From Stegostoma tigrinum (Eukaryota): a stretch of DNA of 64,000 nt. The notes beneath the pieces were generated by a model, which had not been told where the DNA came from, made no database searches, and saw only the letters and a program-made list of their open reading frames with translations. Location of the stretch: assembly GCF_030684315.1 (NCBI RefSeq), contig NC_081369.1:13306035-13370034 (forward strand). Direction: 5' to 3'. Positions 44,261 to 50,549 of the stretch are shown here, piece after piece. A program made the position numbers and the translations under genes. Numbering within the stretch: position 1 is the stretch's first letter; every line of letters begins with the position of its first letter.

Positions 44261-44429
44261 TGTATCAAGTCAAGGAAACACCAATATTTTCCAAATACCA
44301 AATTCCAATATCCTGCCTTCCAGTCCACAAATACTCTACCCAACTTTGCAACAATATTATGAAGCTAGTGAGCGTTCAGAAGAGATCTACCAGAATGTTG
44401 TTGGTTATGGATGTTTTTGATAGACCATT

Positions 44430-46085
44430 AAATAGTACAGCACATTACTGGCCCTTCGGCCCACAATGTTATGCCGAACTTTTACTCTAATCCCAAGGTC
44501 TATCTGGCCTCCACCCTACCTTATACTATCTAATAGCCGCTTAAATGTCCCAATGAGGCCGACTCCACTACCCTCCCTGGCAATGCATTCCACACCCCGA
44601 CCACTCTCTGAGTAAAGAACCTACGTGTGACGTCTCCCCTTTATCTACCTCCACTCACTTTAAAACTATGCCCCCTTGTAATAGCTACCCCCATCCCAGG
44701 AACAAGTCTCTGGTTGTCCACTCTACCTATACCTCTGATCATTCTGTATACCTCTATCAAGTCACCTCTCATCCATCATCGTTCTAAAGAGAAAAGCTCC
44801 AGCTCTCTCAACTTTTCCTCATAAGACCTTACCTCCATTCCAGCCCACATCCTGGTCAATCTCTTCAGAATCTTTTCCAATGCTTCCACATCTTTCCTTT
44901 AATGAGGCGACCTGAACTGGGCACAATACTCCATGTGTGGCCAAACCAGGCTTTTGTGTGGCTGGAGCATAACTTCATGGCTCTTGAACTCAATCCCTCT
45001 ATTAATGAAAGCTAACACACCATACACCTTCTTAACAAGTCTATCCACCTGGGTGGCAGCTTTCAGGGAACTGTGGACATCAACCCCGAGATCCCTCTGC
45101 TCCTCCACACTGTCAAGAATCTTTCTGTTAACCCTGTATTCTGCTTTCAAGTTTTTCCTACCAAAATGAATTACCTCGCACTTTTCAGGGTTAAACTCCA
45201 TATGCCATTTCTCAGCCCAGCTCTGCATCCTATCAGTGTCCCTTTGTAATCTAGAATAGGCTGCCACACTATCCACAATGTGACCCACCTTCGTATCGAT
45301 AGGGTGGGACATTCTTCTCTAGAGCATAGGAAGTTGAGAAGTGACTTTATAGAGATTCATAAAATCATGTGGGTTATGGATATGATTAATGGTAGGTGTA
45401 TTTTCCCTAGGATGGGAGATTTAAAGACCAGGGGACATATCTTTAAGGTGAAAGGAGAGATTTAAAAAAGACATAAGATGCAAATATTTTATACAGTGGG
45501 TGGTTCATGTGTGGAATGACCTTTCAGAACACATAATGGATGCAGGCACAGCTACAACTTTTAAAAATCACTTAGATAGAAAAGATTTGGAGGGTTAGGG
45601 GCCAGGAAGAGGCAGGTGGGACTTAACTAGTTTGGGACTATGTTCAGCATGGACTGATTGAACTGAAGGTTCTGTTTTGTGCTATATGATTCTCTGACCT
45701 CCTCCTTTCTTGTATTGATATGCCTTAGAATATCAATGTACCCATCTCTAGACTCACTCTAGACTGGTAGATAGGGAGAGCCTTTTTTCTAAGATGTTGA
45801 CGGCGAGCACGAGGGGGCATAGCTTTAAATTGAGGGGTGAAAGATATAGGACAGATGTCAGAGGTAGTTTCTTTACTCAGAGAGTAGTAAGGGAATGGAA
45901 CGCTTTGCCTGCAATGGTTGTAGATTCGCCAACTTTAGGTACATTTAAGTCGTCATTGGATGAGCATATGGACGTACATGGAATAGTGTAGGTTAGATAG
46001 GCTTCAGATCGGTATGACAGGTCGGCACAACATCAAGGGCCGAAGGGCCTGTACTGTGCTGTAATGTTCTATGTTCTATGTTCTA
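44430..46085. mobile_element. Cluster of CR1 3' fragments (44430-45297 -, 45298-45700 +, 45762-46085 +)
   Basis: ORFs WHMEFNPEKCEV..EEQRDLGV, KLRSDFIEIHKIM and TRGHSFKLRGERYRTDVRG. (GTTCTAT)n tail at ~46066-46085. Confidence 0.85.
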
Positions 46086-46369: not shown

Positions 46370-46566
46370 AGGAAATGAGTTACTCACCTATGAATCCCTA
46401 GAATCTAACTTGTCTTTGTAGCTACAGTGTTTATGTGCTTGTCCAGTTCAGTTTTCAGTCAATAGTAAGCAGCAGGATATTTATTGTGGAGGACTCAACA
46501 ATGGGAATGAATCTTAAAGGGAGGTGGTTTGATTCTTGCTTTCTTGCAATGTTCACTGCCTAGCAG
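46370..46566 (-). mobile_element. Second-family LINE fragment, downstream half of the R2 target (upstream half 50415-50550)
   Basis: On minus, 50550-50415 reads ataaggtcagaagt..agcaagacctggacaacattcaggcttgg..gccacata. 46570-46370 continues aactgctaggcagtgaac..gaatcaaacc. Together they are colinear with 22335-22660. Confidence 0.75.
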
Positions 46567-49500
46567 TTTTGAAACACTCTGAAGGGGCCTTATTTGAGTT
46601 TTACTGTCACGTGTTGACATTTTGGTAACTTCCAAGGAGCAAAATCACAGTGACAGGATCTGAAGGAGGATGGTCCAGGGGCATCCTGGGGCCTGGGACA
46701 ATATACCAAGCGGTGATCCTCTTAGACAACCGTCGTGCAATGGGAAATGTAGAGCAAGGCAGGCCCCTCCAATTGGTTGGCCACGGCCAAAAACATTTTG
46801 TGCATAGTTAAACCTTACAACAGTGCAATACAACCATGAAAATTTATTCAAATTTAATTCACTTAAAATAACTATCTTATCCACCATCGTTAAACATACC
46901 TTGTGTAGGTGCCCACATCAAAGTGGCCTTGGACAGCCCATCACACCTTGGCACTGGAGGTGGGTGTATACTCAGCTTGCGCTGGGCAGTATTTTGTAGT
47001 CTTCATCTGTTGCTGAGTATCTGTAGAAGTTCCAGCATCAGGGAGATGGTGAACCTGGATAAGTCTTGGGCAAACGACTTGTATCTCTGAATGCCCAAAA
47101 CATGCATTAGACAGTCGATTTTCTTGAAACACTTTCCTGGTGCTGCTAAGATGAATCCAAAGAATGAGGGCTTAGCTTGTTGTGTCAAATTTTTGATTTC
47201 TCAGTCCTGATGTTCATACATTGAGGTCTTCCTGGTCCAGGTCCTCTCCAAGGACTTCTGGGTGTGTTCAAAACATGCCATCACACCCATTAGGGTGATC
47301 CTTCAGTCCTTTTTGAAGATGAGGTCCGGCTTCCATAGTTTTCCTTCCTTATCCTTTATCCTCAGCTCCAAGTACTTCATCTAGCTGTATTTACCAACAA
47401 ACTGGTGCAGTTTCTCCACTGTTTTATTATGCGAGCATTATTAATGAAGGGGGAGCTTCCTGAGATGTGTGAGAGTGTTTCCCAAGGAGCATTGCACCTC
47501 CTGCTTTCTTTGTTTAGGTAGGGTCTGCCTCTGGTTAGGATTGTCCTGCTTTGGTGGTGGTTGCACCTGAGTACTCAACTGTTGATTAACTTTGATGATT
47601 TGATCTGGAATCTGTTTTTGCCCATGAAATGGATATGCGTCATTCTTGTAGTATTATATTCCAAGGTTTGACCACTTGGCTAGCTCCCTGTCGCACGAGG
47701 CTTTGCAGTCAATATTGTTTATTGTAAGGTGTTCTGGGATTGGTGGATCTGGGAGTATCTCCAGCTCTGCTGATGGGTTCTTGTTTGAATTTGTCTTAAG
47801 TCGGTAGGTCTCAACATCTTTGAGGACTTTAAGGTGTCCCAGGCCTTCAGTTTGTCCCATATTGTCTTATTGTCAGAACTGGAAGGAATCCCAGATCAAT
47901 AAGTTCTTAGATTTTCTAAGCAACTCACATTTACGAAAAACAGCCACTGGGACCTGATCTTTGAGTTGAGGCATACCCAATCCTCCATGTCTGCTTCTTG
48001 AATAAGTTATACCATCTGAGGTGGTAAGTGTAAGATTTCTTTGACTGGGATCCGAATAATGGCAGCCGTTTCTGAAGACTACTTTCGGAAGAGTATTTTC
48101 AGAACACAGCCCTTCAATACTGGTTGTATTATTTGTGCGCTTATCTTTGAGTTGAGTGAAGGGCTTCAATAGACAGACTCTTTCGGTAGGTGTTTGTGTC
48201 CAATCAAGTCAAATGCCATAGTAAGTTTGATAAAGATAACTGATCCGTTCGGCACCTTTGATGATGTTGGCCAACGTGGTGATATTTTCATTGCAGCCGA
48301 AGGTCACTGCTAAAAAACAGTTTTTGTCTGAGTTTAATTTGAAACATGCCATTTAAGTGCTTCTCCATAATTTTCGTGAAGAGGCAAAGCAACGTGGGAC
48401 CAATTGTGATAGGCCTCCACTTATATGTCTCTCAGCTTCTCTAGCTCTTCTGTCTTTGCAACGAGAACAGTTTCGCTCTTCTTCAGGGGCTCTGGGATTG
48501 CACGAGATCTCAACCACAAGGTGAAGAGTCGTGAAACCCTGGCTGTGTCGCCGTCATGAATCTTCTGGATACATCCCACCTTCATGTTGTTGGGTTGCGC
48601 CGCACTGCTGGGGTCAATTCCTTTGATGGCTGTATCAACAACTTCTTCTTTGGTGGGTCACATGAGCAATTCATCATCCTTGCTTCTGATATTTAGCTTG
48701 AATCTGTTCAGATTTGCCTTGTTGTTTGGGGTGGGAAATTTTGCAAGGAAGGTTTCCAGCTCTTCCTTGGACAGTGGACATGCAGTGATGGCTGAATGTT
48801 CCGTGACCTGTTGAGCCAGCTACCTCTGTCTTGCTTGTAGAGTTGTTGAGTTGCCATGAATTTGGATTTCTTCACTGCCCAGCGTCTTCTTGCTCCTGAA
48901 TTCATCCCCAATTCTTCTACCTTTTTTCTTCCTTTTTTCCATCTTTGGTTTTTCCTCCTCTTTTTCCCTTCTCTTCCATCTTCAGTCCTTGGAGAAGGTT
49001 CTTCTCCATTAACGAGGAGGTCTGTGATACATTTGATATGCGCTAGTCCCAGGCTCTAACCTTGAATTTCCCTTTCTTGCTTATGAGTTCTTCCACCTGT
49101 GCAAGTTGGTCATCTAAGTCTCGGTGTTCCGGCGTGCAGGCGAGAAGTTCGATAGTCCTCTTTTGCCACTGGACACCTGAGGATTCAACTTCAGGGTCTT
49201 CTCTACGGGTGGCTTCTGGAGGTTCAGACACTGGGGCTTGAGGTCCCACATTGCTATTTTGCAGTATCCTCCAGTTGTCTGAGATCTGTTTAGGTGTTTT
49301 TTTAGTTAGCATACTGGTTTTTTTTTGATAAAAGTGCAACCTGCATACTGCTGTTCCAACTGATGAAGAAATCTTGTCTTGTCTTCCATCCATTTATAAG
49401 CTTTCCTTCGTTTGGATGTTGTCTTGCAGATTTCTACGTGCTTCTCGTTGCAATATTCTGCATGCTTTTGACATTCATGTTGGCTGAGGCCAGTGTTGAT

Positions 49501-50414
49501 GTGAATGTTACTCACATCCTGAGCATCCCCTGATTGTTTAGAAAGGCCAGTGCCATTATATTTCACATAACGACAAGCTATAGAGTGATATTCTCTGCTG
49601 TTCTTGCATTTTGAGAATATTCTTGACCTGATGTATCCTGGCCAAGTGGTCTCTAAAGGTCCCCATGGTTGGAAGGAGGGAGTTGTAGATTGCACAAAAC
49701 AGACCACCTGTGGAGTAGCGGATCATGATCTCATTTACGGATGTTCTGTCGAATGAAGGCTCGATTATGACTGGAGTGATATAAGTCATCATCTCCAATG
49801 TTTCCATGCCCTCTGTTGCTCACACATCTTGTTTTCCCTTTAGTTGTATCTTCAGAAGGCCTGAGTTGTGATAATCTGAGCCTGAGGGTGGGCCACCCTC
49901 ACGTTCTCTTCAATAACAGGGTTTGTGTCTTCTACGGCGACTCTAGGTCCTATAGGCCTTACCGAACCTTGACTCATGTAGTTATGGGAATGCGTATACT
50001 GGGTCTCTCCACCATCTCCTCTGTCTGGGTGGAGATAGATTCTTTTCTAATGTGTCATCTGCACTTTTCACAGGTCACTACTAATGAGCCTGGGGGAAGG
50101 TTTTTCTTCCAGGACACATCCCAACTGGACCAATAAGAGTCTTTAACTGTCTCCATTTTATATAGTTTTGTTTTGTGCATGATATTTGGTGGACAAGTTT
50201 CGTGATTCGTGCAGATCAAACAGCCATCTCGCAATTTTTCTAGGAAATATTTAGACAGCCAATAGCCAAGCGGAGTGATGCTTCCAGTGGGAACCTCGAG
50301 GAGGAACAACATTCATTGCAGCAGACAAAACTGTGTAAAAACTACCGCAGCGGTAACTAGCCAGGCACGACTCCCAAGGGAGATCCCTCCAAGAGATTCA
50401 TAGTTACTCCTGCT
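46567..50414 (-). mobile_element. R2-clade non-LTR retrotransposon, near full length, decayed, internal RT deletion
   Basis: Minus frames in order: three zinc fingers (CAIY..RDHLARIH; SKC..YHSIAC; GLSQHE..KH), Myb (KWMEDK..LEQQY..KTPKQISD), KKSKF..QQLYKQDR. RT WRPITIG..LFTKIM and VIFIKL.MAFD..H, then LKP and DGITYS..GGLG. CCHC RRC..ETLSHISG..ARII and RLE KLWKPDLIFKK. A 28S-like 23-mer lies at the 5' end. Confidence 0.9.
50245..50414 (-). ncRNA. Degenerate HDV-like R2 5' ribozyme
   Basis: Minus strand, in HDV order: 28S-derived P1 5' AGCAGGA, CC-TCCTCGA-GGT (P3/L3, 50296-50302), P1 3' TCCCACT (50286-50292), GG, P4, CTAA (50251-50254). P2 is aatgtt/aatatt. Confidence 0.65.
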
Positions 50415-50549
50415 ATATGTGGCCTGAAAGTCACTTGCCAGTTTTCCATCCAAGCCTGAATGTTGTCCAGGTCTTGCTACATTGGGGCACAGACTGGGAG
50501 TTTGATATAGTACATTGATTAACAGCATTCCGACTTCTGACCTTATCAT

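Follow-up and report, generated by a model that had tools for sequence, protein, structure and literature searches.

Ribozymes of the HDV-like type at R2 retrotransposon 5' ends were described by Eickbush, Burke, and Eickbush (2013, PMC3774820), and the commonest cleavage site in that account is position -28, in agreement with the preliminary description of the locus reported here, which stated that many R2 ribozymes cut about 28 nt upstream of the insertion site. R2Bm insertions outside the 28S gene have been known since 1988 (Xiong et al.) and are described as rare in PMC10499050, and PMC5035012 records the non-specific elements R2NS-1_SMed and R2NS-1_CSi together with the retargeted R8 and R9. 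The off-target insertions reported for engineered R2Tg (PMC12222951) show two features, an upstream GGAGT and T/A/G after the nick. Cartilaginous-fish R2 elements of both lineages, chosen by their 28S flanks, are reported in PMC13188248. A range of R2 stringency is expected according to PMC13580325, where the positions of extant elements are considered to be biased by rDNA turnover.

Here we describe an R2 copy in a window of the Stegostoma tigrinum genome (the whole stretch analysed, 64,000 nucleotides) and compare it with the other R2 copies of the same genome. Very probably, the stretch in question belongs to a dead R2 outside the rDNA, of which it forms the decayed 5' end, and its 28S leader was copied from a 28S-R2 co-transcript that had likely been cut by the ribozyme. 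The features are given below, with their basis in brackets.

46480..46566, minus strand: host LINE, downstream of the insertion (in register with the upstream part)
46567..50414, minus strand: R2 copy of lineage A (three zinc fingers), located outside rDNA, complete at its 5' end and dead (DNA identity; 3' end as in sister copies)
47006..49873, minus strand: broken R2 ORF with remnants of zinc fingers, Myb, RT, and RLE (many stops and frameshifts)
50246..50254, minus strand: J4/2 CTAA, whose C at 50254 is predicted to be catalytic, followed by the P2 3' strand in decayed form (alignment)
50255..50281, minus strand: decayed P4 region, which in L010 and L011 is 6 nt longer (alignment)
50284..50295, minus strand: P3 3' strand (50295-50293), P1 3' strand TCCCACT (50292-50286), and P1.1 GG (50285-50284) (alignment, pairing)
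50296..50302, minus strand: L3 TCCTCGA, including the CC of P1.1 (alignment, published motif)
50303..50310, minus strand: P2 5' strand (50310-50306) and P3 5' strand (50305-50303), decayed (alignment)
50314..50352, minus strand: second J1/2 hairpin, arms about 50352-50342 and 50324-50314 (alignment and fold of the intact copy)
50353..50359, minus strand: J1/2 strand TAGTTAC, pairing with leader bases 50407-50401 (helix 2, 90% of cells paired in 22 copies)
50391..50413, minus strand: 28S-derived leader, 28S positions -27 to -5 from the R2 nick (alignment to the genome's own 28S)
50408..50414, minus strand: P1 5' strand, decayed, with one CpG change and A as its first base (alignment, pairing)
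50415..50500, minus strand: host LINE, upstream of the insertion (alignment to empty copies)

The window copy is 3.85 kb long, and its DNA is 61-71% identical to six other old copies and 54% identical to the rDNA copy. It interrupts a LINE, presumably of the CR1/L2 type to judge from its RT motifs, whose halves rejoin in register (one offset gives 34 of 50 matches and the others at most 19; continuity was judged on 19 empty copies). Since the upstream LINE flank reaches 50415 and the downstream flank is in register with it, the R2 start must be 50413 or 50414, that is, -27 or -28 in 28S numbering, with at most one base unexplained at the join. No 28S sequence was found after the 3' end of the copy. 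The flank on that side has C as its first base and lacks an upstream GGAGT, in contrast to most younger sites, where T stands at +1. The element is non-functional because of stops, frameshifts, and the loss of about 0.55 kb of the RT core near 48080-48110, and what is left of its ORF aligns along a 1297-aa protein of the rDNA-resident copy L074 at 27-60% identity. Three zinc fingers, the Myb motif, and RLE, all read by eye in the translation, place it in lineage A. A 130-aa fragment from the window had no match in Pfam, nor in a protein search against longer proteins, which is weak evidence. The 3' part of another LINE, which we take to be CR1-type, lies downstream of the R2 copy (window positions 44400-45310, minus strand).

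The leader at 50413-50391 on the minus strand reads as first described and matches the 28S genes of this genome (L006-L009) at 21 of 23 positions. The second-best match of this 23-mer within the window has seven mismatches. A match of at least 21/23 is expected by chance about 1e-5 times per window and about 0.5 times in the whole genome of 3.2 Gb; thus the context of the leader carries the case. The preliminary description would have been contradicted by 28S similarity running on well beyond 50414, and the host LINE was found there, with only 4 of 20 bases matching 28S at -28 to -47. Base 50414, the counterpart of -28, is A and not G, and its assignment to the leader is ambiguous.

The HDV-type motifs pointed out in the preliminary description are all present and in order, namely L3 at 50302-50296, TCCCACT at 50292-50286, GG at 50285-50284, and CTAA at 50254-50251. 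In addition, CCTCCTCGAGG (50304-50294) agrees at 10 of 11 positions with the conserved R2 ribozyme motif given in PMC5035012. As it stands, P1 of the window copy has two central mismatches, and P2 and P3 are imperfect, while the order of the helices is kept. It was proposed earlier that P1 is restored when CpG decay is reversed, and the sister copies bear this out by having decayed both ways: an ancestral CpG in the P1 3' strand accounts for CA in the window copy and L010 and TG in L011. A pairing of GCAG in the old leaders with CTGC of the element was considered in place of CpG decay and rejected, CTGC being part of the second J1/2 hairpin. The ribozyme stretch of the window folds no better than shuffled sequences (z +0.84; 163 of 200 shuffles equal it). 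A search with Rfam HDV-type models, suggested earlier as a check, did not recover the ribozyme, giving no HDV-type match in the window at gathering score and none in L074, L180, and L001 at E <= 5; the long J1/2 may defeat these models.

The structure is much clearer in L074, the intact relative in the rDNA, which has an open frame of 1297 aa with matches to Pfam RVT_1 (E 1.7e-35) and to C2H2 fingers. Its 5' end folds into P1, P3, P4, and two J1/2 stems (z -3.78; 1 of 200 shuffles), and addition of P2 and P1.1 by inspection completes the nested double pseudoknot. One of the J1/2 stems, overlooked in the preliminary description, is built with leader bases -21 to -13. The HDV-like order P1, P2, P3, L3, P1', P1.1, P4, J4/2, P2' can be drawn in the intact copy, and 79-90% of the cells of the individual helices are paired across 22 copies. 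For the structure as a whole, with the second J1/2 hairpin left out of the count, 84.9% of the cells are paired in these copies versus 27-47% when the strands are slid, and 12 pairs have changes on both sides. As the 22 aligned sequences are related and partly decayed, and the counts include CpG decay, these figures give support and not a probability. The predicted catalytic C of J4/2 and the AA that follows it are unchanged in 22/22 copies. The old subfamily, to which the window copy belongs, has a 7-nt L3 and a 7-bp P1, and the younger lineage has an 8-nt L3 and a 6-bp P1. Overall, a -28 type HDV-like ribozyme at the R2 5' end is predicted, with support from both alignment and folding.

The position of the cut was bounded using the younger lineage. 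A protein search yielded 210 candidates, of which 150 were scored and about 120 examined. All 14 loci of this lineage on small contigs lie in 28S at the canonical 3' junction, and in one of them, L077, a tandem duplication starts exactly at -28. Ten of these 14 rDNA copies (L073-L086) are 5'-truncated, with repeated identical junction classes. Large contigs contain 96 loci; 84 were kept at >=80% identity, two in 28S fragments (L138, L151) were set aside, and 51 of the kept loci have a 3' end and are referred to as two-ended. Genome-wide, 37 of 41 exact matches to the J1/2 motif fall on large contigs, as do 20 among the 100 listed of 188 exact matches to the 28S leader, and the rDNA is maybe under-assembled. 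The J1/2 motif is present in 49 copies, and subtraction of four in which the script found no leader and of the two in 28S fragments leaves 43 off-target leaders. Eleven of them start at -28, 31 at -27 to -12, and one (L192) at -30; no copy of the 11 starting at -28 matches 28S at -29. In two of the four copies missed by the script, L115 and L172, inspection by eye puts the start at -28. The 28S leader is repeated, in tandem or partially, at the 5' junctions of L121, L149, L151, L163, L165, L174, and L179, as in other R2 elements.

Among 20 further loci, six, selected by their leader pattern, likewise stop at -28, and five of the six belong to another R2 lineage, characterized by a compact ribozyme and two zinc fingers. 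Over the RT region, the protein of this second lineage is 28% identical to that of the lineage A copy. The lineage is represented by the off-target copies L193, L195, L197, L198, and L202 and by L194 in 28S; its ribozyme is about 95 nt long, and its off-target copies start at -28.

The preliminary description held that the single junction in the window maps the cleavage site in vivo. That claim was too strong: the window copy starts at -27 or -28, and 31 of the 43 younger copies fall 1-16 nt short. Since the starts of single copies vary, the cut is mapped by the upper limit across copies, and one junction gives a lower bound. The family of off-target copies appears to bound the cut at -28 in vivo in two R2 lineages, presumably through self-cleavage.

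In the mechanism that we propose, R2 masters residing in the rDNA would be co-transcribed by Pol I, P1 would form between 28S positions -28 to -22 and the element, and the ribozyme would cut at -28. The R2 protein would sometimes nick look-alike sites with GGAGTA about 20-26 nt upstream and TAG at the nick, and reverse transcription would run up to the RNA's 5' end or close to it. Without 28S to anneal to, the cDNA would be end-joined, leaving the leader visible, and the inserted copies would decay afterwards. A site in a CR1-type LINE fits the signature and is present in thousands, and could in this way become a second place where insertions of the younger lineage recur. Both the self-cleavage and the Pol I origin of the template RNA are steps that we infer.

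Relatives of the window copy bear on the origin of that RNA. L010, L011, L012, and the more distant L110 start within 1-2 bases of the window start and have unrelated flanks; L093 starts likewise within 1-2 bases, but inside a 28S fragment. The genome search, whose counts are floors, turned up no intact member of the old subfamily in the rDNA. One could suppose that a piece of 28S had become, by capture, the old subfamily's own 5' end, and that the subfamily spread as a non-specific R2 whose masters lay outside the rDNA, so that the ribozyme would cut, but not from a Pol I co-transcript. Apart from the missing rDNA member, such a history would suit the recurrent differences of the old leaders from 28S (-25 is A in 5/6, and -23 is changed in 3/6), which appear more uniform than decay needs. 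Precedents are also available, as duplicated 28S sequence can turn into element sequence (PMC3774820) and two non-specific R2 families are on record (PMC5035012). We nonetheless regard this history as unlikely. L093, a member of the old subfamily, occupies the canonical R2 site, with both flanks, in a 28S fragment that has decayed to 81-84% identity with 28S; the P1 partner of -23 is still C in the window copy, L010, and L011; the same CpG changes arise privately in younger copies; and, following PMC13580325, an old lineage resident in the rDNA would be expected to be lost through turnover. The rDNA-resident parent assumed in the preliminary description thus has indirect support, from L093 at the canonical site and from the younger sister lineage in the rDNA with its intact ORF and ribozyme. 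Upstream of its decayed 28S fragment, L093 carries a 36-nt tandem array made of 28S sequence (L093:585-1394). L094, L107, and L110 form a third, older R2 subfamily, 52-56% identical to both others and sharing the 8-nt L3 of the young lineage.

If the leader was copied from a co-transcript, its 5' end at -28 might still have a cause other than the ribozyme, such as a nuclease or a stop of the reverse transcriptase where it meets the GC-rich stem P1. Other processes do trim the end, as indicated by starts spread between -28 and -12, and cleavage is predicted here. Such a cause is very improbable, however, given that in two unrelated R2 lineages, whose cores differ, the limit falls on the first base of P1, that the catalytic C is invariant in 22/22 copies, and that -28 is the site found in published assays of the same architecture (PMC3774820). 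Least credible is an arrival at the DNA level, by which a piece of rDNA with its R2 lost the flanking 28S later and the junction position is a coincidence: dispersed R2-bearing 28S fragments do exist (L093, L138, L151, L199, L200), but the host LINE, which joins up in register on the two sides of the element and leaves no more than one base unaccounted for, the absence of 28S after the 3' end, and the same start in sister copies with unrelated flanks largely refute it. A leader copied from a ribozyme-cut co-transcript remains the reading that we adopt.

The target sites were analyzed in the 51 two-ended copies, 35 of which lie at unrelated sites, 13 at one LINE site, and 3 next to short 28S tails. 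At the unrelated sites T is found at +1 in 33/35, A at +2 in 28/35, and G at +3 in 19/35. The word GGAGT, a motif chosen after the flanks had been seen, occurs 7-36 nt upstream of 11/35 sites versus 31/899 background windows (3.4%; p 1.6e-8), with L175, whose flank is too short, scored as a miss; the exact word is absent at 24/35 sites. To judge from these flanks, the off-target sites seem to keep a 28S-like signature, as the engineered R2Tg off-targets do. Loss of 28S targeting of the R2NS type is not what we find, since the younger lineage resides in 28S and the off-target motif is kept. Target-site duplications measure 0-2 bases in 51/51 two-ended copies and about 11 bases in L211.

Sixteen R2 insertions occupy one and the same nucleotide in the RT of a CR1-type LINE, namely the 13 two-ended copies L130, L132, L134, L148, L160, L163, L165, L166, L167, L172, L174, L181, and L186 together with L204, L211, and L212. 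At this site GGGAGTA is separated from the nick by one base more than in 28S. Exact matches to the empty site number 4,333 in the assembly, versus 188 to the 28S leader. Duplication of a single chimera was considered and rejected: the 5' junctions differ, the copies are scattered over the R2 tree, and flanks within a subclade (93-97%) are no more alike than those outside it. These three observations indicate 16 separate insertions. In one clade of five copies (support 0.99), 5/5 are at the CR1-type site versus 10/45 of the others (Fisher p 0.0014, post hoc). This subclade differs from the main burst at 50 nonsynonymous and 68 synonymous codons. A decaying dispersed copy as its master is not supported, as only 1 of 42 shared substitutions is of the CpG type versus 28% of all differences. 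Coincidence in time with a burst of CR1 could explain the 5/5 clade as well as a changed specificity would. We tentatively suggest, as a possibility that is not the favored one, that a second multi-copy target has been gained, one nucleotide within a CR1-type LINE's RT that imitates the 28S site and is about twenty-fold commoner in the assembly, and that the 5/5 sub-lineage, with its intact frame and non-CpG shared changes, is midway in a switch from the rDNA. The literature searched contained no mention of a natural hotspot for R2 in a CR1 LINE.

The tree of the younger copies consists of a star-like burst and a ladder toward the rDNA copy. Burst copies differ on average by 3.7% from their majority sequence, in which the frame is open over 1306 codons. 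Codon changes in the master lineage are 214 synonymous to 113 nonsynonymous, and private changes are 1652 to 2411. The dispersed copies appear to be dead on arrival, shed by masters under selection that would most simply reside in the rDNA. Some dispersed R2 pieces run on into downstream 28S, for 72, 113, and 166 nt after the 3' ends of L089, L169, and L171 and for 29 nt in L138; possibly they are captured R2-28S co-transcripts. Three of the four abut one abundant repeat or sit between inverted copies of it, and the end of this repeat is, we presume, similar to the minimal hammerhead of Penelope-like elements. L204, at the CR1-type site, and L199, in a 28S fragment, are internally deleted R2 copies in which only 0.6 kb of the 5' part and the 3' end are left, resembling the SIDE elements of Drosophila.

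The behavior of R2 outside its usual target is of importance both for biotechnology and for the evolution of retrotransposons. R2 proteins, thought to be confined to 28S rDNA, are being engineered as tools for gene insertion, and this genome holds a natural, heritable record of the misses of lineage A R2, with the same signature as found in human cells for engineered R2Tg. The record also shows that a decoy or second target can be furnished by an abundant host LINE. Moreover, extinct R2 subfamilies, erased from the rDNA by turnover, are preserved in the off-target copies, and these offer a case in which it can be tested how a site-specific retrotransposon may come to change its target.

Both the -28 ribozyme and R2 insertions outside 28S were already known; new is the picture of a whole family, with its -28 limit, its natural off-target signature, and its second site. 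The ribozymes of PMC3774820, as presented there, resemble those described here in the use of 28S positions -28 to -22 as the P1 5' strand, in the L3, P1.1, and J4/2 motifs, and in tandem duplications of 28S from the cut site, represented here by L077. In contrast to the rDNA junctions and assays of PMC3774820, our data come from off-target genomic copies of a vertebrate, the window copy being a dead fossil; in addition, leader bases -21 to -13 pair here with J1/2 of the element in three subfamilies. Lineage A elements such as R2Tg, as characterized in PMC12222951, share three zinc fingers, Myb, RT, RLE, and the canonical 28S site with the copies of this genome, and the R2Tg off-target signature, consisting of -25 to -19 and the first bases after the nick, recurs in them. 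Here, unlike in R2Tg, the off-target insertions are natural, heritable, and numerous, and the motif at the CR1 site lies one base further from the nick. The R2Bm insertions discussed in PMC10499050 are similar in being at non-28S sites with a partial likeness to the target; against that rare case, at least 51 two-ended dispersed copies were examined here, and one second site is recurrent. Finally, the R2NS families and R8/R9, in the account of PMC5035012, likewise have copies off the canonical site, whereas the lineage described here is still found in 28S and keeps its target motif, and its second site is a retrotransposon and not rDNA.
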